The notes: generated by a model not told the origin, from the letters alone. A stretch of DNA of 32,000 nucleotides from Candidatus Helarchaeota ASGARD archaeon Hel_GB_B (GCA_005191425.1 SUPR01000023.1:6601-38600), one strand, 5' to 3'. Numbered from the stretch's first letter, positions 1 to 24,707 are shown. Program-made: numbers and translations.

Positions 1-680
1 TTATGGAGTGATGCAGTCATTACATCGGCGCCTAATTTTTTCCCAGAAATTGGCATACGTCCAATACTATAGGCGCCATTTATAACTAATGGAATATCAT
101 TTTCATGAGCAATTTTAGATATTTCTTTAGTATCATTTAGATTTCCATAATTATAATCTACGTGAGTTAAAAAAAGTAATTTCGGTTTTTTGCCCGTGTT
201 ATTTTTAATTTTTTGAATTAAATCACTAACAATATCAAAATTTAATTCATAGAGTGGTCCACCATTATGAGGTATTTCTACAATATTAACTCCAGCGCGT
301 TCGGCACTGATATAGGTGGTATAATGAGCAAGAGAATCTACGATTATAGTGTCATTTGGAGATGTTAATGCATGTATGGTAGAAAATTGTGCTTGGCGGC
401 AGCCAGGTGTTAACCGTGCTGAATCCATATCACAAAATATAGCTAAATCTTCATGTAAATCACAGATTGGTGGGGTAGAAATTTCATTTAATTTGCCTGT
501 TAAACAAAAATCACAAGTAGAATATCCATCAATAAAATCAATAATAGTCTGTAAAACTTTTGGGTCATTAGGTATTCTTCCACCGGCTTGTATAGGATGT
601 AAATTAATATAATTTTCCTCTATATCTCTAGATATATTTCTATATTTTTGGAGATAGCCTTTTGTAAATTTATTCATCAT
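1..680 (-). CDS. pscS: O-phospho-L-seryl-tRNA:Cys-tRNA synthase (SepCysS), 3' part runs off the window
   Basis: Translated by hand from the ATG at 680: MMNKFTKGYLQKYRNISRDIEENYINLHPIQAGG...GYSTCDFC...TPGCRQ...AHYTTY...THVDYNYGNL...NGAYSIGRMP...TASLH(K). These match SepCysS motifs INLHPIQxGG, GYSxCDxC and NxAYSxGRMP. The PLP lysine falls at the window edge. Absent from the ORF track because it is open-ended. Confidence 0.9.
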   Translation of the reverse strand, partial: MMNKFTKGYLQKYRNISRDIEENYINLHPIQAGGRIPNDPKVLQTIIDFIDGYSTCDFCLTGKLNEISTPPICDLHEDLAIFCDMDSARLTPGCRQAQFSTIHALTSPNDTIIVDSLAHYTTYISAERAGVNIVEIPHNGGPLYELNFDIVSDLIQKIKNNTGKKPKLLFLTHVDYNYGNLNDTKEISKIAHENDIPLVINGAYSIGRMPISGKKLGADVMTASLH

Positions 681-7036: not shown

Positions 7037-7550
7037 TTTTCATGCCTATTTTATTTTTATTTTACCATTATTTTTTTACAATTTAATTCAAGAATCCACG
7101 AATTAAAATTTTTTGTAATTTGAATTTATTTTCAGACTATAAATTAATTTGGATTAAAATTTTTTAATAAATAAATTTTAAAAAAAACAAGTTTTTAGAA
7201 TTGTGTTATTTTAAGTTTACTCCATAACTTAATTGGATCTAATAATTATAACCATTAGTGATAATAAATAATTAATAATAAATAATTATTTAATGAAACG
7301 AAAATCAAATTATAAAAAATACTAAATTAAAATAATAAAAATTAAACTATAAGTCTTTAATACAGATATTTTGATTATAAAATTAGATTTTATTTTAAGA
7401 GTAGCGATAAGAATAACAAAATAAACCATTATAAGAGTTAATTAATCCAAGATTAATATTACCAATTTCCTCATAACCTTTAAAAATATTCATTCTATTA
7501 ATACTCTAAAATAGTATAAAAACGATTAATTGGGCGTGTAGCTCAGCTAG

Positions 7551-7583
7551 AAAGGTAATAATTGAAAAATATACCTTGGTGAA
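7551..7583 (+). other. tRNA-Lys intron 1 (33 nt, D-loop, 18/19)
   Basis: Internal helix AAGGTA/TACCTT, a relaxed central helix, and removal restores G18-G19. Confidence 0.7.
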
Positions 7584-7595
7584 GCAGAGCGTTGG

Positions 7596-7625
7596 ACTAA
7601 CAGAACTATCTGCAGTTAGGACGAA
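7596..7625 (+). other. tRNA-Lys intron 2 (30 nt, anticodon stem, 30/31)
   Basis: Full hBHBh' motif: AGAG/CTCT, bulge AAG, central CGTT/GACG, bulge GGA, CTAAC/GTTAG. Confidence 0.85.
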
Positions 7626-7632
7626 GCTCTTA

Positions 7633-7648
7633 ACATATTTTGGGTGAA
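7633..7648 (+). other. tRNA-Lys intron 3 (16 nt, canonical 37/38)
   Basis: Central helix CTCT/GGTG (one U-U mismatch), 3-nt bulges and a short CA/TG hairpin. Removal restores a 7-nt anticodon loop. Confidence 0.78.
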
Positions 7649-7717
7649 ACTCAATGGCCGCGGGTTCGACTCCCGTCACGCCCGCCATCCTCCTCTGGAA
7701 AGCCATAAATATTAAGA

Positions 7718-15280: not shown

Positions 15281-16552
15281 GTGAGATTTATGCCAGAATT
15301 CATTAAAGAATTTATTGATGCATTAAATACCAAAAAACCTAGAATTATTGAAGATTTTAAAAGTATAAAATTGGTTGATATTTTTAAAGATGAGTTTGCG
15401 AAATTTTGGATAGATTATAATTTGAAAAAAGCTCGACCAGGTCAAAATATACTAGCAATTGATAGTAGTCGAGGATTAATACCATTTGGTAATGGGGGCT
15501 TTTTTCACGTTGTTAGAGCCTTGGGCATCGTTAGAAATATTAGATATCCATATGTTTTTACAGACTTTGATTTTGGACAACCACTAAGAATGTATAATTA
15601 TATTGGAAGAGTAATGGAATGGGCTGAACATAAAGTGGCTATAAATGCCATAAAAGATGGGTTCAATGGTTATATATTGGTCGATGGCTCAATATATGGT
15701 AGATTAGTGCATCTTCCTTTAGAATTAGAACTTATAAATAATAAATCTTTTATGATACATTATTTTGAAACATTAATCGAACTACTTGATCTGTGTAAAA
15801 ATAAGAATATTCCGTTTATAGGTGTAAGTAAAGAAAGTAGGACTGGATTTTTTAAGGAGTTTTTAATCAAGGAAATTCTTAAGAAAATAATTCATGATGA
15901 ACAATTTTTGGGAGAATTAGTAAGTTTAGGACTTGAAAATAAACGCAAAGCTATTGAAATTGCTAGAAAAACTGGAGACGATCAGATAATTTCTTTAATA
16001 AATGAACTTGTATATAAAAAGCCCGATGCCTTATTGATTTTAAATAACGCCCTTAATTCGGGATATACACACCCACTTTTATTAGGGGCAAGTCAGAGGT
16101 GGAGGAGAGCTTCAAAAATGATTTCGAGAGATCCAAAAGAATATATTCGTAAAAATTTTCCATTATCTTCTTTAGACAATAATTTTTTAAATTTCGCGCA
16201 GGATATTGTCAAAAAAATGTTGGATTTTCCTGCAATTGTCTCATTTCATTTATTACCCCAAATTAATGATACACCTATTCGGATTGATATCCCAGATTGG
16301 TATTTCGACCTTGATTCTAAACTTATAGAAATTGGATGGCCTCAAATTGTTGACATTGATTTAGAAGAAATTTTAAATTTAATTTCGGCTGGATATTGTG
16401 GGCTGGACAATTATAATATTTGGTTGAAATTTGTTGATGATAATGTTAAATTAAAAAGAAATATTTTAGAAAATATTTATTTACAAAAATTTGAAGAAAT
16501 TATTAGTAAAAAAGCAACCTCAAGGGGGTATAGACGTGTTAGATATCCATAA
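15281..16552 (+). CDS. nurA: NurA 5'-3' nuclease
   Basis: LAIDSS, ILVDGSIY, GVSKES, PIRID, late NIWL...DDNVK segment. First gene of an operon with herA/mre11/rad50. Confidence 0.85.
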   Translation: MRFMPEFIKEFIDALNTKKPRIIEDFKSIKLVDIFKDEFAKFWIDYNLKKARPGQNILAIDSSRGLIPFGNGGFFHVVRALGIVRNIRYPYVFTDFDFGQPLRMYNYIGRVMEWAEHKVAINAIKDGFNGYILVDGSIYGRLVHLPLELELINNKSFMIHYFETLIELLDLCKNKNIPFIGVSKESRTGFFKEFLIKEILKKIIHDEQFLGELVSLGLENKRKAIEIARKTGDDQIISLINELVYKKPDALLILNNALNSGYTHPLLLGASQRWRRASKMISRDPKEYIRKNFPLSSLDNNFLNFAQDIVKKMLDFPAIVSFHLLPQINDTPIRIDIPDWYFDLDSKLIEIGWPQIVDIDLEEILNLISAGYCGLDNYNIWLKFVDDNVKLKRNILENIYLQKFEEIISKKATSRGYRRVRYP

Positions 16553-18125
16553 AATTGGTTTAATTATAGGTGAATCAACACCTACTGAATTTTTATTTGC
16601 AGTTGATGAGTCAATTGGAAGATTAGAATATGTTTTAGTAAAGTCTAAAGAAATTTTATTGGAAAAGTCGGGTAATAGAATAGAAGAAATAGAGGCAGAT
16701 GTAGAAATTGTTGCCCAGATCTACAAAATTTTTGCTAACTCGATGGCATTATTAGAAGGATTAAATTTAGAAAGTGCTGAAAAAATAGTGGAAGCTGGTC
16801 TTTCGGATAATCGAGTATTTGCTAAAGCTAGAGTACTTGGATTTTTATATAAAGGCACGATATATGAACCCAGAAAAGCTATTAAACCAGGAAATATTGT
16901 TTATAGAGCACCTAAAGAACTACTTGAACAATTCTATTCCTATAGTAAAGATGAAGGTTTACACATTGGAAATTTAATTACGAGACATGATGTCCCAGTG
17001 AGTTTAAGTATTAAAGGATTTAGGAGGCACCTTGCAATACTAGCTCAAACTGGGGCAGGTAAAAGCTACACAGCTGGGGTTTTAATAGAAGAATTATTAC
17101 AGAAAGGAGCTACAATTATTATAATAGACCCGCACGCAGATTATGTTTTTATTGGTAATAAAAAAGATGGTACTAAAATAGATAGAGTAGATATTTTCAG
17201 AACGCCTGAAAGTACAGGCAGGTATGATGAAAGTGAAATAGGAAAAAAAGTCGAAAATTATTCGATCAAATTTTCTGATTTAAGTCTAACTGAAATAGAA
17301 ATAATTTGTGGCATAAATGAAAAATGGACAAATATTACAAGTGCTATTCAAAATACAATTGATAACTTTAAACAAAATAATCAAGATTATTCTCTTGAAG
17401 ATTTATTAAATGAGCTTATAAATGGAGATAAAAATGATAAGAGCGCTTCTAAATATATTAATAGATTGAACAAAATAAAAGTTTGGGGCGATGCTACAAC
17501 GGATATTGGGAAATTTCTCAAGCCAAAACATATTTCAATTATGGACCTATCGGGATTAAATGACACCATCTCAGACTATGTTAATTATAAAATTTTAAAT
17601 GATATATATTATCAAGTGGAAAGTAAGAATTTCGAATATCCAGTGTTTATTTTTATTGAGGAGTCTCATAAATTTATACCCAATAAAGAAAATAAATTGT
17701 CTAAATCAATCATTAAGAAGATTGCCTCTGAAGGTAGAAAATTCGGTATTTTTTTGGTCTTAATCACTCAACGACCATATAAAATAGACCAAGATGCCTT
17801 AAGCCAGTGTAATAGTCAGATTATAATGCGTATGACAAATCCTACGGACCAAAATGCTATAAAAACAAGTTCTGAACGGATAAGTGAAAATTTGTTAAAT
17901 GATTTACCTGGTCTAAATATTGGTGAAGCAGTCGTTGTGGGAGAAATAACAAGAGCACCAGTTATGATTAAAGTTCGGGAACGAATAACCGAAGAAGGCG
18001 GCGCAGATATTGATATAATAACTAAATTAAAAGAAGCATCTGAAGAAGCTGAACATGAAAAGGAAAAAAAGGAAGATGGATTACAAGAGTCAGTTTCAGA
18101 AATTAGAGATTTAGTGGAGAGTTAA
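16536..18125 (+). CDS. herA: HerA bipolar DNA helicase/translocase
   Basis: HAS-barrel N-terminus, Walker A LAQTGAGKS, DPHADY, IEESHKF, EGRKFG, TQRP, SQCNSQ. GTG at 16536 after a GGGGG SD-like run is preferred over 16491. Confidence 0.93.
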   Translation: MLDIHKIGLIIGESTPTEFLFAVDESIGRLEYVLVKSKEILLEKSGNRIEEIEADVEIVAQIYKIFANSMALLEGLNLESAEKIVEAGLSDNRVFAKARVLGFLYKGTIYEPRKAIKPGNIVYRAPKELLEQFYSYSKDEGLHIGNLITRHDVPVSLSIKGFRRHLAILAQTGAGKSYTAGVLIEELLQKGATIIIIDPHADYVFIGNKKDGTKIDRVDIFRTPESTGRYDESEIGKKVENYSIKFSDLSLTEIEIICGINEKWTNITSAIQNTIDNFKQNNQDYSLEDLLNELINGDKNDKSASKYINRLNKIKVWGDATTDIGKFLKPKHISIMDLSGLNDTISDYVNYKILNDIYYQVESKNFEYPVFIFIEESHKFIPNKENKLSKSIIKKIASEGRKFGIFLVLITQRPYKIDQDALSQCNSQIIMRMTNPTDQNAIKTSSERISENLLNDLPGLNIGEAVVVGEITRAPVMIKVRERITEEGGADIDIITKLKEASEEAEHEKEKKEDGLQESVSEIRDLVES

Positions 18126-18128
18126 AAA

Positions 18129-19232
18129 TTGAGAATTGCGCATATATCAGACACTCACTTAGGATATAGACAATATAATCTTGATGAACGCGAACAAGAT
18201 ATTTATGACGCTTTTGACGAAGCTATTTCAAAAATTATTGAGGAAAGAGTCGATGTATTGATACATTCAGGAGATTTATTTGATTCACCAAACCCACAAA
18301 TTAAAGCTTTAAAATCTTTTAAGAATTCAATAGAAAAATTGGAAGGAAAAGTAAAAATTTTTAGCGTTTTGGGTGACCACGATATGCCTAAGAGGAGAGG
18401 AATACCACCTCATAAACTTTTTAATGTTAATGTGCTTGGAATAGGTAGATTACAATCAGAAGAATACAAAGGAGTTTTATTTAGTGGGATTTCAAATTTA
18501 AAAGGGAATAATATCATACTTCTTAAAGAAGAATTAAAAAAATTTGACCATGAAGCGGAAAAATATAAAAAATCGGTTCTTATTTTACATCAAGCTCTCA
18601 AAAAATATCTGCCTTTTGAAGGGGCTTACGAATTAACTGCAGATGATTTGCCTAGAAGTGCAACGTATTATGCTCTGGGACACATTCATTCTCGATTATT
18701 TACTAAATTTGGAAGTGGAAAACTTGCTTATGCGGGGTCAACTGAAATTTTAAGAAAAGATGAAATAAGTTCATGGGAAAAAAATGGTAAAGGTTTTTAT
18801 ATTATAGATCTAGAGGACGATGAAGTGGCTATAAATAAAATTGACTTAGATATCAGACCACAAATTAATATCGATATTAATACTGATGAATTAGAAGAAA
18901 TATCAGACAAACTGAACTATGGTAAAAAACCTATCCTTCATGCGCGAGTTATTGGAGAACATATTGATATGAAAGCAATAATTGAAAAATTTAATGAATT
19001 ATATAGAAATAAGACCTTAAGTATTAAACTAAGTTTTAAGGATACTTCGTCAAAAATGAATCTAATTCCTCAAAAAGACTGGAATTTAAAGAAACTAATG
19101 TCAGAATATCTTAATGATGAAATTCTTGCGGACCTTGCGTATAATTTATACCAATTATTGATTGATAACAATATAGAAGAGGCAAAAAAGGTTGCAGAAA
19201 AGTTTTTGGAGGAAAATAAAAATGATCTTTAA
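18129..19232 (+). CDS. mre11: Mre11 DNA double-strand break repair nuclease
   Basis: HISDTHLG, HSGDLFD, GDHD, LHQ, ALGHIH, YAGS. Confidence 0.95.
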   Translation: MRIAHISDTHLGYRQYNLDEREQDIYDAFDEAISKIIEERVDVLIHSGDLFDSPNPQIKALKSFKNSIEKLEGKVKIFSVLGDHDMPKRRGIPPHKLFNVNVLGIGRLQSEEYKGVLFSGISNLKGNNIILLKEELKKFDHEAEKYKKSVLILHQALKKYLPFEGAYELTADDLPRSATYYALGHIHSRLFTKFGSGKLAYAGSTEILRKDEISSWEKNGKGFYIIDLEDDEVAINKIDLDIRPQINIDINTDELEEISDKLNYGKKPILHARVIGEHIDMKAIIEKFNELYRNKTLSIKLSFKDTSSKMNLIPQKDWNLKKLMSEYLNDEILADLAYNLYQLLIDNNIEEAKKVAEKFLEENKNDL

Positions 19233-21813
19233 AAAAATAATTTTGAAAAATTTTATTTCCCATAATGAAACCGAGATTGATTTTCCTCTGGGAGTCACTG
19301 TGATTGTGGGCGAGAATGGTGCAGGGAAATCTTCAATTCTAGATGGTCTAATTTTTGCATTATTTGGAGATAAAGTGAGGGGGGATACCATTACAGATAT
19401 TATAAGGTGGGGTACTTCTTCTGCTGAAATCATACTTGATTTTGATATGGATTCAGTAGAATATGAAGTTAAATGGACTCGGACAAAAAGAAATGTAAAT
19501 GCTAAATTAATAAGGAAGGATATTGGTGTTATTGCTACTCATAAAGATAATGTAGTTAATGAAATCCCTAAAATTTTAAAAATGGACAAAGAGACAATTA
19601 TTAACTCGATATTTATACGCCAAGGAGAAATTGCAAGTCTAATAGACGCCGACCCAAAAGTAAGAAAAAATTTAATTGGAAAATTAATTGGCCTGGATAA
19701 AATGGAAAAATCATGGGAATTAATGAAAAAAGTGATAGAACATTTTGAAGAAGAAAAAAAGGATTTAAAAAATAGAAAAAGTGAACTTGATATAGAGATA
19801 AAAACAAAGACCAAAAACATTGAAAAAATAAAAATTGAAATCGATGACTTGAAAAATAAAATAACATCACTTGAAAAAGATTTTAAATTAGTAAATAAGC
19901 AATTTAAAAATATTGATGAAAAATTAAATGAATTGAACAAAAAAAAGGAGATATATAATAAGCTTCATACATCAATAGAAGTAATCAGTGGAGAACTTTC
20001 TTTAATAGAAAAGGAGATAGAAGACTTTAAAGTTTCGGTAGCTGAGAGTAAAGAAGCAAAAGAAAAGATGAAAGAATTAGAAAAAAAAATAGAAAGAATT
20101 CCACTAATAGAACAATATGTTGAGAAATTTCGAAAATTAAATGATGAAAATGAGAATTTGAATGATTTTACTAATGAAATTAATGAAATTCAAAATATAG
20201 ATAAAAATTTACGTAAAAAATTTGAGGAATATAAAGAATATAAATCGAATATTGAAGTTGATTTAGAAATACAGGATGATTTGTGGCAGATAAAGGAAAT
20301 ATATTCAAATTTAATTTATGATTTAGATAGCCATTTTTCACAAATTTCTGAAATGAAGGACGAACTTAAAAAATTAATAGAAAAAGCTAAAAAAGTATTA
20401 ACAGATATTACGCCACAAGGAAAAGAAGACAAAATAAATGAATTAGAAAAGAGAATAAAAGAAATTGAAACTAAAATAAGAAATCTACAGGAGAGTTATG
20501 GACAAAAAATTGGTAGAATTCGTGAAATTGATGAATTCTTAGATTTATTAAAAGAAAAAGATATTTGTCCAGTGTGTAAATCAAAACTGACTATAGACCA
20601 TAGAAAAAAAGTGACAAATGAACTACGGGATGAGAAAAAAAGGCATATTGATGAACTAAAAAAAATTCAAAATGAACTTGAAGGGTTAAATAAATCTAAA
20701 TCTGAATTAAACCAGAAAATCAAAGAAGTTACGGAAATAAATGTGAAAAGAATTATTAAACTAAAGAAAGATATCGATAAAAAGTCATTAGAATCTAAAA
20801 AATTATATAAGAAACTTCAATTAATTGAAGTTAAACTCGCTAAAATTAAAACTAATATTGAAAAAGACATATCAGACATCAATGTATTAATTAGGAAACT
20901 ATCGGATGATATTCAAGAAATTATCACAAAAATTGGATACGAACCTACGAAGCCCGAAAATGAATTAAAGAGATTGAGAGAAAAAGAAAATGAATATAAT
21001 AATCTCAAACCGATTGCTGGCCGATATAATGAATTAACTCAAAAACTTGAATTAAAAAAATCCAGGAAAAGCATTTTATTGTCTAATTTGAATGATACTA
21101 ATCAAAATATAAAAGAGTTAGGCTATAATAAGGAAGAACATGAGAAAATAGGGGAAGAACGGGATAAATTACTCCAAAAACAGATTAAAATAAAAACGGA
21201 ATTAAATGAAAAAAAGGAATTACTTGAAAAAAGAATAGAAGAGATGAAAGAATTAGAAATAGAACTAAAAAAATATGCTGCTGATCTTAAAAAAATAGAA
21301 AAAAGTCTTAATAAAATCGAAGAATTTCTAAATAAATTAGAAAGAGTAAGAGGTTCATTCTCGAGAGATGGAGGACAAAAATTGGTCCGAAGAGTGATCG
21401 CTCCAATTATCTCGGAGTATGCGAAGACATATGTTGAACATTTTAATCTTGACATAATGAACATAGAAATATCAGAAGATTTTGATATTTCAATTGTAAA
21501 AGGTGGAAATGAAGTATCAATTAAATCGATGAGTGGTGGGGAGAAGGTCGCGATAGCTATTGCTATAAGATTAGCACTTGCTAAGACTATTTCCGGGAAT
21601 TTATCCTCAATAATAATGGACGAGCCAACAATACACCTTGACGATGAGAGACGTAGAGAACTTGTTGATATAATGAAGGATTTTCTGATGGACAATAGAA
21701 TAGTGCCGCAAATGATAATTATTAGCCATTTTGCAGGTTTAGAAGATGTTGCAGATACAATTTATCAAGTAAAAAAAACAAATAACGTTTCAAGGGTCGA
21801 ATTAATTACGTAA
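19222..21813 (+). CDS. rad50: Rad50 ATPase
   Basis: Walker A GENGAGKSS, long coiled coil, Zn hook CPVC, signature MSGGE, Walker B MDEPT. ATG at 19222 follows GGAGG and overlaps the mre11 stop. Confidence 0.96.
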   Translation: MIFKKIILKNFISHNETEIDFPLGVTVIVGENGAGKSSILDGLIFALFGDKVRGDTITDIIRWGTSSAEIILDFDMDSVEYEVKWTRTKRNVNAKLIRKDIGVIATHKDNVVNEIPKILKMDKETIINSIFIRQGEIASLIDADPKVRKNLIGKLIGLDKMEKSWELMKKVIEHFEEEKKDLKNRKSELDIEIKTKTKNIEKIKIEIDDLKNKITSLEKDFKLVNKQFKNIDEKLNELNKKKEIYNKLHTSIEVISGELSLIEKEIEDFKVSVAESKEAKEKMKELEKKIERIPLIEQYVEKFRKLNDENENLNDFTNEINEIQNIDKNLRKKFEEYKEYKSNIEVDLEIQDDLWQIKEIYSNLIYDLDSHFSQISEMKDELKKLIEKAKKVLTDITPQGKEDKINELEKRIKEIETKIRNLQESYGQKIGRIREIDEFLDLLKEKDICPVCKSKLTIDHRKKVTNELRDEKKRHIDELKKIQNELEGLNKSKSELNQKIKEVTEINVKRIIKLKKDIDKKSLESKKLYKKLQLIEVKLAKIKTNIEKDISDINVLIRKLSDDIQEIITKIGYEPTKPENELKRLREKENEYNNLKPIAGRYNELTQKLELKKSRKSILLSNLNDTNQNIKELGYNKEEHEKIGEERDKLLQKQIKIKTELNEKKELLEKRIEEMKELEIELKKYAADLKKIEKSLNKIEEFLNKLERVRGSFSRDGGQKLVRRVIAPIISEYAKTYVEHFNLDIMNIEISEDFDISIVKGGNEVSIKSMSGGEKVAIAIAIRLALAKTISGNLSSIIMDEPTIHLDDERRRELVDIMKDFLMDNRIVPQMIIISHFAGLEDVADTIYQVKKTNNVSRVELIT

Positions 21814-21965: not shown

Positions 21966-22562
21966 TCATAGTAAGACTTCCTTGCATTGATAATATGTGA
22001 CTTCCCCTTGGCGGTCGACTACGGTTAAGACCAGTTTTTTTCTCGAGCTTTTAGCTATTTTTGTAATTTTAGCTAGATCAACTAATTTAAGTGGAGTACC
22101 TTCAGTGATCGGATGTAATAAATATTTTGCTGCGGATTCTCCAGCGATTACACCTCTATCATATACTCTAAATTCGATACTTTCGCCGAAGCCCTGACGT
22201 ATTATATAACCTCTACTCCGAATATCTTTATAGACTAAATATTTTGTCCAGAAGTTAGGAATATTTTTTACAAAATATTCAGATAACTCTCTAAAATTAT
22301 AATTTTTATCATTTTCATCATATATATTGAGCCTTTTTCGTTCTAAGAGTAGAAGTGCTTCGAGTGGTTCTAGGATTAAAATATTATTTTCGAAATTTCC
22401 GTAATAACCTTTTTCATATAGTTTTTTAGATTTTTCGTCTTCAATATGGACTTTTAATCCTTTAAGAATACCATTATAGACTTCAATTTCTTTAGATTTT
22501 TCTTTTTCCGTGTTATTCGAGGACTTTAATTCCTTATTTTCGTTCAAATTTACCACATTCAT
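21966..22562 (-). CDS. endA: tRNA-intron endonuclease family protein, probable non-catalytic (structural) subunit
   Basis: LEPLEALLL, VYKDIRSRGY, FRVYDRG, RKKLVL.VVD..G.VTYY. Catalytic Tyr and His positions are not conserved. Confidence 0.88.
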   Translation of the reverse strand: MNVVNLNENKELKSSNNTEKEKSKEIEVYNGILKGLKVHIEDEKSKKLYEKGYYGNFENNILILEPLEALLLLERKRLNIYDENDKNYNFRELSEYFVKNIPNFWTKYLVYKDIRSRGYIIRQGFGESIEFRVYDRGVIAGESAAKYLLHPITEGTPLKLVDLAKITKIAKSSRKKLVLTVVDRQGEVTYYQCKEVLL

Positions 22563-22622: not shown

Positions 22623-23693
22623 TTAACTATTAATTATTTTTACAATATTTTCGTTATATGGAGGATAAATTATACCTTTTTCACAAATTATGGCTGAAAC
22701 TAATTCAGGTGGTGTAATATCGAATGCGGGGTTAATAACATCGGTATTTTTTGGTACAATCAATTTCCCATTAATTGTGGTAACTTCAGTGTGGTCTCTT
22801 TCTTCAATAACTACATTTTCAATTTGAGTAGTAAGGTCAAATGTAGAAGAGGGTGCAACTACATAAAATGGGATTTTATAATGTTTAGCAATTATAGCAA
22901 CACCTGAAGTTCCAATTTTGTTGATTACATGTCCAGTTGCTAAAATTCTATCAGCGCCGAGTATAACGCAATTAACTTCTTTTTTATAACAGATATATGA
23001 GAACATATTATCGGAAATTACCTTATGAGGTATACCTTCATAGGATAACTCAAAAGCAGTTAGTTTAGCACCTTGTAATCTTGGTCTTGTTTCATCCGCA
23101 TAAACAAAAATATTCTTTCCTAATTCATGAGCACGTTTAATTACACCTAAAGCAGTTCCATAAATTCCAGAAGTGGCTAATGCACCTGCATTACAATGTG
23201 TAACTATTTTATAATTTTGTTTAACAAGTGTAGCGCCAATATCAGCCATTTTTTTATTAATTTCATAATCTTCTTTTGCAATTTTAAGTGCTTCATCGAC
23301 AATTAATTTTTTTAAATTTAAAATATCTGTGTTATTATTTTTAATTAATTTCATGATCCTATTCAGTGCCCAAAATAGGTTTACGGCAGTGGGGCGAGTC
23401 TTACTCAAAATATTGTATGCTTCAGTTATTTTGCTCAGAAACTCGGTTTGTTCAGCGGAGTCAGGTATTTGTAAGGCTGCTAATGCCATTCCAAACCCAG
23501 CAGCTACACCAATTGCAGGAGCACCTCTTATGTTCATAACTTTTATAGCTTTAGCCATTTTTTTATAATTGTCAATTGTAATGTACTCCAATTTACCTGG
23601 TAATTTTGTTTGGTCAATTAAAATTGCCTTATTATTTTTCCAATAAATAGTCCTAATTCCGTGATCGGTATTTTTATCGCTCATTTTTAACAT
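22623..23693 (-). CDS. mtnA: S-methyl-5-thioribose-1-phosphate isomerase (eIF-2B family)
   Basis: IDQTKLP, RGAPAIG, TRPTAVNL, THCNAGALAT, DETRPRLQGAKLT, GADRI, NKIGT, NPAFDITP. Confidence 0.93.
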   Translation of the reverse strand: MLKMSDKNTDHGIRTIYWKNNKAILIDQTKLPGKLEYITIDNYKKMAKAIKVMNIRGAPAIGVAAGFGMALAALQIPDSAEQTEFLSKITEAYNILSKTRPTAVNLFWALNRIMKLIKNNNTDILNLKKLIVDEALKIAKEDYEINKKMADIGATLVKQNYKIVTHCNAGALATSGIYGTALGVIKRAHELGKNIFVYADETRPRLQGAKLTAFELSYEGIPHKVISDNMFSYICYKKEVNCVILGADRILATGHVINKIGTSGVAIIAKHYKIPFYVVAPSSTFDLTTQIENVVIEERDHTEVTTINGKLIVPKNTDVINPAFDITPPELVSAIICEKGIIYPPYNENIVKIINS

Positions 23694-23822: not shown

Positions 23823-24707
23823 TTATGGTTCAGGAAGATTTATGAAAACATTTATGGTCTCATTTTTTATTAAACTTTCTATAAGGTCGTTAATATAATC
23901 AGTTACATTCTCTTTTTCGACCAAATTTTTAAGTAAATCAAATTTATGCGCATGAAATGCTGAAATTATAGCTTTTTGTTTATCATCTTTTATGTTTGAA
24001 TAATTTAGATAATTTAAGAGAATAGTTTCCTTTAATTGTTCCTTCCATTTATTTTCCCCAATGCCAATTAGAGTAAAAATACCCGAAATTAAAGCTTTGG
24101 ATTTAGTGACCAATCGGCAGAGGGCGCGTTGAGTTTCTCCAGACCGAATAATGTCTTCGACAATTAATATACGATCTTGATTAGAGAGCAAATTTGCAGG
24201 CAAATATAAAGGAATGATGATACCAGTTCTGCCAGGAGAATAATTTTCTTCAAGAAATCTGGAAACACCAGCTTCTTTAGTTTTTTTAGCAATAATAGTA
24301 TCAATACCCAATTCATTTGCAGTTAAAACAGCTAAAGGCACACCATCAACAGCTGCAGTTAAGACTTTAGTAATATTTTTCTTATAGTATTTGTTAAAAA
24401 TCTCAGAAGCCACAATTTCTAATATAAAATTATTACCAACAATGTTTGAATTGTCAAAATAACCATTCTCATCAAAAGTTATATTCTTACGAATTTCATC
24501 TTTTACATCAAAAAATTCTGCAAAAACTTCGAAGATCTCCCTAGCTCGCGTATAAGAGGGGAGGACATGACCTTTAATATATCTATTCAATACAGTCATT
24601 GGTAAATTAAAAATCTGACTAAGTTTATTGTAAGTAAATTTATTCTTTAATTGCGTAAGATATTTTATTGACTTTAATCTATATTCAATAGATTGTAAAT
24701 GATTCAA
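23823..24707 (-). CDS. HTH + type I phosphoribosyltransferase (archaeal PurR-like regulator)
   Basis: N-terminal HTH (TYNKLSQIFNLPMTVLNRYIKGHVLPS), TAAVDGVPLA, PRPP motif IVEDIIRSGET. TTG start after GAGGAG. Confidence 0.85.
   Translation of the reverse strand: MNHLQSIEYRLKSIKYLTQLKNKFTYNKLSQIFNLPMTVLNRYIKGHVLPSYTRAREIFEVFAEFFDVKDEIRKNITFDENGYFDNSNIVGNNFILEIVASEIFNKYYKKNITKVLTAAVDGVPLAVLTANELGIDTIIAKKTKEAGVSRFLEENYSPGRTGIIIPLYLPANLLSNQDRILIVEDIIRSGETQRALCRLVTKSKALISGIFTLIGIGENKWKEQLKETILLNYLNYSNIKDDKQKAIISAFHAHKFDLLKNLVEKENVTDYINDLIESLIKNETINVFINLPEP

Follow-up and report, generated by a model that had tools for sequence, protein, structure and literature searches.

Heteromeric (alpha-beta)2 RNA-splicing endonucleases (EndA) with an L1 insert have been described in Asgard archaea by Kaneta et al. 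2018 (PMC5829648), and a preprint (bioRxiv 10.64898/2026.10.13.758758) reports two distinct full-length EndA paralogues in 44 of 60 Asgard genomes. In solved EndA structures, the tetramer is built by insertion of the structural unit's acidic L10 loop into a basic pocket of the catalytic unit (PMC5829648), and the bulge is recognised by a residue pair consisting of an Arg and a Trp or second Arg (PMC5829648; PMC6379350). Structural beta subunits have been crystallised from M. kandleri (5x89), A. pernix (3p1z_A/3ajv_A), N. equitans (NEQ261; 3iey_B/3if0) and P. aerophilum (PAE0789; 2zyz_A). The first three are two-domain proteins of 153–170 aa, and the literature lists those of M. kandleri (166 aa) and N. 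equitans (153 aa) as full-length. The M. jannaschii enzyme (1a79) is an alpha4 homotetramer that works without a partner, its catalytic His and its residues for substrate recognition being in place. In the alpha'2 enzymes of Archaeoglobi, Thermoplasmata and Alkanophagales, an N-terminal repeat is fused to a catalytic unit in one chain of 340–380 aa.

Here we analyse endA-beta, a gene in the window (the whole stretch of DNA analysed, 32,000 nucleotides) from a Helarchaeales (Asgard) archaeon. The four crystallised beta subunits have the same fold as its product, and share with it the lost catalytic His, the retained acidic L10 loop and a gene separate from that of a triad-bearing alpha, which in TACK and Asgard archaea has the L1/CSL loop. 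As far as the two Asgard sources describe their enzymes, the layout is shared and nothing material differs, endA-beta being an ortholog of the second paralogue. Full-length beta subunits and the (alpha-beta)2 EndA of Asgard archaea are thus already published; endA-beta is a sound annotation and no discovery, an ordinary instance of an enzyme architecture already in print, and it leaves current understanding unchanged. The excerpts of both sources that were consulted (PMC5829648; 10.64898/2026.10.13.758758) contain no mention of the residue pattern found here for Asgard beta, in which Tyr, Lys and L10 are kept and His, Trp and Arg are lost.

A two-domain EndA protein without the catalytic histidine

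The endA-beta gene and its parts map to the window as follows.

21966-22562, minus strand: endA-beta, a single open reading frame for a 198-aa EndA-family protein, predicted structural subunit
22479-22562, minus strand: N-terminal tail, residues 1-28, Lys/Glu/Asn-rich, predicted disordered, unconserved
22284-22478, minus strand: N-terminal EndA domain, residues 29-93, with no L1/CSL insert after the GYYG motif
22161-22163, minus strand: Tyr134, equivalent to M. jannaschii Tyr115, kept (Tyr in 45 of 45 beta and 120 of 120 alpha sequences)
22131-22133, minus strand: Ala144 at the position of the general-acid His125, His lost (His in 0 of 45 beta and 120 of 120 alpha sequences)
22038-22040, minus strand: Lys175, equivalent to the catalytic Lys156, kept (Lys in 45 of 45 beta sequences)
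22002-22016, minus strand: acidic L10 loop DRQGE, D183-E187 (D183 in 45 of 45 beta sequences)
21993-22253, minus strand: C-terminal EndA domain, residues 104-190, a homologue of the catalytic domain
21978-21980, minus strand: Glu195 in place of the C-terminal Trp/Arg for substrate recognition, which is lost

Both EndA domains are present. Pfam scores are 53.9 bits for PF02778 (cut-off 21), which spans residues 30-93, and 73.7 bits for PF01974 (cut-off 27), which spans residues 104-190. An AlphaFold2 model built with 42 homologs (mean pLDDT 86.6) has the EndA fold and superposes on M. jannaschii EndA with a Z score of 24.8 and an rmsd of 1.6 Å over 169 residues (VIA; Foldseek TM 0.79/0.90). The tail is the part of the model with low confidence, pLDDT falling below 50 at residues 1-3 and 7-23, and ortholog coverage begins only at about residues 5-40. 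The description of this gene as a full-length, two-domain EndA paralogue, first made by a sequence-only reading of the window, therefore stands.

The same reading had placed Glu at the catalytic Tyr and Ala at the catalytic His, with the catalytic Lys kept. We aligned endA-beta with 1a79 using HMMER, in which the residue number is the chain index plus 8 (chain range 9..178, 171-residue chain). The 1a79 triad comprises the Y of FRLYERG (Tyr115), the H of KEHS (His125, index 117) and the first K of RKK (Lys156). Tyr115 pairs with Y134 of FRVYDRG in endA-beta, His125 with Ala144 and Lys156 with K175. The loss of His and the retention of Lys are borne out, both in this alignment and across all 45 orthologs, in which the His column holds A, T, E, V, P and other residues. 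The loss of Tyr is not: the earlier alignment had picked the wrong tyrosine, and the Glu that it equated with Tyr115 pairs with Tyr108 of GLKYGADF, outside the triad. Lys168 stands where the recognition Arg, 7 residues before the catalytic Lys, is expected. Judged by its residues, endA-beta does not appear to qualify as a catalytic enzyme, its triad being incomplete and its substrate-recognition pair missing.

Curated protein models file this sequence differently. It exceeds the cut-off of the NCBIfam endA equivalog TIGR00324 (95.1 bits, cut-off 59.6), a model that is blind to the catalytic His, and falls below those of the crenarchaeal beta-subunit equivalogs PRK09539 (NF007084-NF007086; 31.4, 25.9 and 19.7 bits with cut-offs of 157, 101 and 162, respectively). 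Because the TIGR00324 cut-off is exceeded, orthologs are called 'tRNA-intron lyase' in public records, a name given to a protein that, from its residues, is very probably unable to cut RNA.

A complete catalytic paralogue in the same genome

The source genome comprises 3.54 Mb in 182 contigs and is 93.7% complete with 4.9% contamination. Profile searches with PF01974 and PF02778 identified exactly two EndA genes above cut-off. A search for a second EndA with an intact Tyr/His/Lys triad, proposed by the sequence-only reading, thus had a positive outcome: the gene lies on another contig of the same genome, so that alpha and beta are unlinked.

Contig C36 (G000:C36), L001:1474-2052, minus strand: alpha gene, 192 aa, catalytic subunit with the full Y/H/K triad

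The alpha protein includes VRKKF and SWFKP, and the Arg/Trp recognition pair is present; the acidic L10 loop is absent. Its N-terminal domain carries the insert GIRKPKSTDFDRP, equivalent to the crenarchaeal L1/CSL loop. After the GYYG motif, the alpha family has a GIRKPK-type insert of roughly 10 residues and the beta family has none, and P43, I46, K48, P49 and K50 of alpha are invariant in 35 orthologs. A profile of the alpha family, which has 6946 matches and a mean identity of 59% (compared with 49% in beta), matched crenarchaeal catalytic subunits at E values of 1e-59 to 3e-45 over nearly their full length, including the CSL/L1 region.

Searches of the source genome at E<=10 with PF01974, PF02778 and NF007085 found no third EndA-like gene and no short crenarchaeal-type beta; the only two extra matches, both sub-threshold, were in unrelated long frames. 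The pairing of the two genes extends across the phylum. endA-beta was matched in 151 of 151 sampled Asgard genomes, and most of these, single-contig genomes included, gave two EndA matches, a beta ortholog and a weaker alpha. In the closed genome of Odinarchaeum yellowstonii, alpha and beta are found on one 1.42-Mb contig.

Complementary losses in the alpha and beta families

A word-indexed search with endA-beta returned 52 homologs. The best 45 are orthologs with 40–69% identity, from Helarchaeota, Lokiarchaeota/Promethearchaeota, Hodarchaeota, Odinarchaeota and Sifarchaeia; the remaining 7 are single-unit enzymes that have the His, one of them named Nanoarchaeia. We then aligned the 45 beta sequences together with 120 alpha sequences and 7 homotetramer-like proteins and compared their residues.

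Residues for catalysis and substrate recognition are found in alpha and lost from beta, whereas residues of the L10 loop show the reverse. The catalytic His is present in every alpha sequence and in no beta sequence. The Arg 7 residues before the catalytic Lys is found in 120 of 120 alpha and 13 of 45 beta sequences, and the Lys of GLKFG in 119 of 120 alpha sequences, with G (30), E (9), S (4) or D (2), and no K, in beta. All 120 alpha sequences have the C-terminal Trp and none of the 45 beta sequences does; Arg, too, is missing there from the residues listed for beta, which account for 43 of the 45 orthologs. L10 Asp183, in contrast, is invariant in beta and found in 0 of 120 alpha sequences. 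Position 187 of the loop is Glu or Asp in 44 of 45 beta sequences; in alpha Lys is the commonest residue there, with Glu in 20 sequences among the residues listed. Glu154 is likewise present in 44 of 45 beta sequences and is not a common alpha residue. Homotetramer-type single-unit proteins hold both residue sets (KYHRKDDW). Such a complementary pattern would be expected if an alpha4-like ancestor had been duplicated and its jobs split between the copies, and the losses make a clear, quantified case of subfunctionalisation. Y134 and K175 are invariant in beta, and these residues may retain a role in contacting RNA or in catalysis.

Relationship to other structural units

The closest match of endA-beta in both sequence and structure is M. 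jannaschii EndA (35% identity), which also has two domains, an L10 loop and the Tyr and Lys of the triad; endA-beta differs in having neither the His nor the substrate-recognition residues and in being accompanied by a catalytic paralogue. In sequence it is much nearer to alpha4 and catalytic units than to the crystallised beta subunits. It is also less degenerate than these, as it keeps the Tyr and Lys of the triad, neither of which is present in the part of the M. kandleri beta subunit aligned by HMMER. Matches to crystallised crenarchaeal beta subunits had E values of 5e-4 to 6e-3 with the single protein and of 1e-6 to 1e-8 with the family profile. Specifically, the beta profile matched the structural subunits 2zyz_A (PAE0789) at 2.4e-8 and 3p1z_A (A. 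pernix beta) at 1.7e-6, whereas the alpha profile matched neither at E<=1.

When the beta-family profile was searched against 1.84 billion representatives, 1607 matches were obtained at E<=0.001. Many of the best are two-unit alpha'2 enzymes of 340–380 aa from Euryarchaeota (Alkanophaga, Thermoplasmata and Archaeoglobi), and in two-unit EndAs the beta profile scores the N-terminal unit above the C-terminal unit. We compiled residue strings for 263 units. Catalytic units read K-Y-H-R-K...W/R. In structural units the His is lost, Tyr and Lys often persist and the L10 Asp almost always does; among N-terminal units of fused EndAs, Tyr is found in 45 of 78, Lys in 46 of 78 and the L10 Asp in 77 of 78, and the His is mostly lost. 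The state in which Tyr and Lys are kept and His is lost is common in structural units, and is therefore typical and no special trait of endA-beta.

Trees were inferred with FastTree (263 rows) and IQ-TREE (79 rows, LG+G4, SH-aLRT). In both, endA-beta groups with single-unit proteins that lack the His, in a clade with a support of 99. The clade comprises all Asgard orthologs as well as named proteins of Verstraetearchaeota/Methanomethylicota, Thermoprotei and Bathyarchaeota, and the His is absent from 76 of its 77 cluster representatives. Catalytic and structural units split at an SH-aLRT of 94 in the IQ-TREE analysis, a value that convergent residue usage could inflate. The N-terminal repeats of alpha'2 enzymes resemble beta in residue pattern and fall on the same structural side of the tree, but they branch apart from the single-unit beta clade. 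A phylogeny with crenarchaeal alpha/beta and TSEN subunits had been suggested for this gene; ours provides the beta-side clade, and its rows include neither the beta subunits crystallised from Crenarchaeota and M. kandleri nor the Sen proteins of eukaryotes.

Two further observations concern individual members. P0295 and P0316 (368 aa) are fused two-unit EndAs in which the C-terminal unit is sister to Asgard alpha (support 99-100) and the N-terminal unit, of the structural kind, forms a separate branch; they look like a lineage-specific beta-alpha fusion similar to that reported for Korarchaeota. P0224 (291 aa) is the sole member of the His-less clade with a His at the catalytic column (GYHSKDDP), which might reflect a reversion or an oddity of the alignment.

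Predicted role of endA-beta and alternative readings

The fold, the residue pattern, the complementary paralogue, the phylum-wide co-occurrence and the clade membership computed here all bear on the role of endA-beta. We conclude with high confidence that it is the structural, non-cutting beta subunit of an (alpha-beta)2 tRNA/RNA-splicing endonuclease. The proposal that the protein is a non-catalytic structural subunit retaining its N-terminal domain is upheld by the complementary losses, the intact paralogue and the co-occurrence of both genes across Asgard archaea.

From these results we infer that the two proteins physically form a heterotetramer, that beta is inactive by itself, and a substrate range. 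By analogy with solved archaeal EndAs, beta would pair with alpha through a C-terminal beta-strand interface, and its L10 loop (D183-E187) would plug the basic pocket of the alpha in the opposite heterodimer. This docking would set the spacing of the two alpha active sites for cutting both bulges of a bulge-helix-bulge (BHB). Beta itself would not cut, having neither the general-acid His nor the Arg/Trp pair that grips the flipped-out bulge base. Alpha has the full triad and a crenarchaeal-type L1 loop; this loop would confer broad (relaxed BHB) specificity, as it does in characterised enzymes, and such specificity would fit the many non-canonical introns of the source genome. A genome rich in such tRNA introns would thus encode, in the complete predicted (alpha-beta)2 enzyme with its L1 loop, a broad-specificity splicing machinery.

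Several findings count against this reading. endA-beta passes the catalytic equivalog TIGR00324 and lies far below the cut-offs of the crenarchaeal beta models; in raw sequence and fold it is nearer to the homotetrameric M. jannaschii EndA than to any crystallised beta; alpha and beta are encoded by unlinked genes, with no conserved neighbourhood around beta; two of the three triad residues, Y134 and K175, are invariant in beta; and the genome is a bin of 182 contigs with some contamination.

The strong conservation of Tyr and Lys without His, in a gene unlinked to alpha, would also suit a pseudo-enzyme outside the splicing complex, derived from EndA and binding RNA or regulating on its own, for example at BHB-like mRNA structures. 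We consider this very unlikely. The best-conserved beta-specific residues, the L10 Asp/Glu, are those that mediate tetramer assembly, and they are lost in alpha, which therefore needs a partner that supplies L10. Moreover, the combination of retained Tyr and Lys with a lost His is also common in fused N-terminal units, which are certainly part of the enzyme.

The chance that endA-beta is a second active, homotetrameric (alpha4-type) endonuclease, in which another residue such as His150 in LLHPI replaces the general acid, is slimmer still. The invariant Tyr134 and Lys175, the retained L10 loop (as in alpha4 enzymes), the TIGR00324 score and the best matches in sequence and structure, both to the M. 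jannaschii alpha4 enzyme, would all agree with it. However, true alpha4-type single-unit proteins from the same search keep KYHRK..W/R, whereas all 45 beta orthologs are without the substrate-holding Trp and most have another residue in place of the Arg, and a complete alpha co-occurs almost always. His150 itself is six residues away from the catalytic position along the strand, and we rejected it as a substitute general acid since its column is not conserved among the 45 orthologs (H in 18, Y in 9, C in 7 and S in 5).

That the missing His is an artefact, arising from a sequencing or assembly error in a fragmented genome of 182 contigs or from a mutation that recently inactivated a once catalytic gene, has a negligible probability and is effectively refuted by the ortholog alignment: the His is absent from 45 of 45 orthologs, from many independent assemblies, and from 76 of 77 cluster representatives in the wider clade, the reading frame is unbroken and an ortholog identity of 40–69% indicates purifying selection.

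A more specific view of the structural beta subunit would make Tyr134 and Lys175 a His-less pocket that binds RNA phosphate and adds contacts between the heterotetramer and relaxed or multiple BHBs or, alternatively, would make this two-domain, little-degenerated beta lineage the direct prokaryotic ancestor of Sen54. We regard this as unlikely.

Comparison with eukaryotic TSEN

Eukaryotic TSEN contains the non-catalytic subunits Sen15 and Sen54. In common with the predicted beta, both have the EndA fold and belong to a heterotetramer. The Pfam models for Sen54 (PF12928) and Sen15 (PF09631) remained sub-threshold against endA-beta, at 15.1 and 14.5 bits with cut-offs of 24 and 22, respectively. 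The beta profile gave a weak signal with the N-terminal domain of human TSEN54 (E 0.0024) and matched TSEN2 at 2e-8 and TSEN34 at 0.007; for the alpha profile, the values were 0.3 for the TSEN54 N-terminal domain and about 1e-15 for TSEN2 and TSEN34. In structural comparisons, the beta model aligned with TSEN54 at a Z score of 17.8 (rmsd 4.8 Å, 175 residues) and with the catalytic TSEN2 at Z scores of 19.3-20.3. TSEN54 was the top eukaryotic chain for the beta model in Foldseek, and TSEN2 had the higher Z in VIA-align. Within entry 7zrz, the best chain was TSEN54 for the beta model and TSEN34 for the alpha model, a preference between predicted models that is at most a hint of kinship with Sen54. 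A claim of specific Sen54 or Sen15 ancestry is unjustified, given the sub-threshold Pfam scores and a fit to TSEN2 that is at least as good.

Genomic neighbourhood and an intron-bearing tRNA

The neighbourhood of endA-beta in the window, together with a tRNA gene further away, is as follows.

7532-7684, plus strand: intron-bearing tRNA gene, likely trans substrate (Rfam RF00005, 37.3 bits, 153 nt)
15281-21813, plus strand: complete nurA-herA-mre11-rad50 DNA end-resection cluster, downstream of and convergent on endA-beta
22623-23693, minus strand: aIF-2B/MtnA-family gene, 60 nt upstream of endA-beta, same strand
23823-24707, minus strand: HTH-phosphoribosyltransferase gene, further upstream

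The sequence-only reading had connected endA-beta with a three-intron tRNA 14 kb away. The tRNA is real according to Rfam, although ARAGORN missed it at 7532-7684, but it has no physical linkage to endA-beta. Its D-loop has 39 nt where RF00005 compresses 4 (about 35 extra nt) and its anticodon loop has 51 nt where RF00005 compresses 5 (about 46 extra nt). A stretch reading CTCTTAA points to the anticodon loop of a tRNA-Lys(CUU), and the gene would hold two or three introns. The splicing endonuclease likely acts on this tRNA in trans, as on every intron of the genome.

The downstream cluster encodes NurA (423 aa), HerA (544 aa), an Mre11-type phosphoesterase (367 aa) and Rad50 (873 aa) with a zinc hook. 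Upstream, the IF-2B and phosphoribosyltransferase genes were found by tblastn within 3 kb of endA-beta in 1 of 6 other Asgard loci, that of the single-contig 1.42-Mb genome G001 (L006), and were absent from 5. No PINA-ATPase gene adjoins endA-beta. We rejected a conserved operon context on this count; with neighbours shared in only one of six beta loci, there is therefore no functional linkage. By eye, a TATA-like TTATATT is found about 28 nt upstream of the endA-beta ATG, and a run of T directly follows the stop codon.
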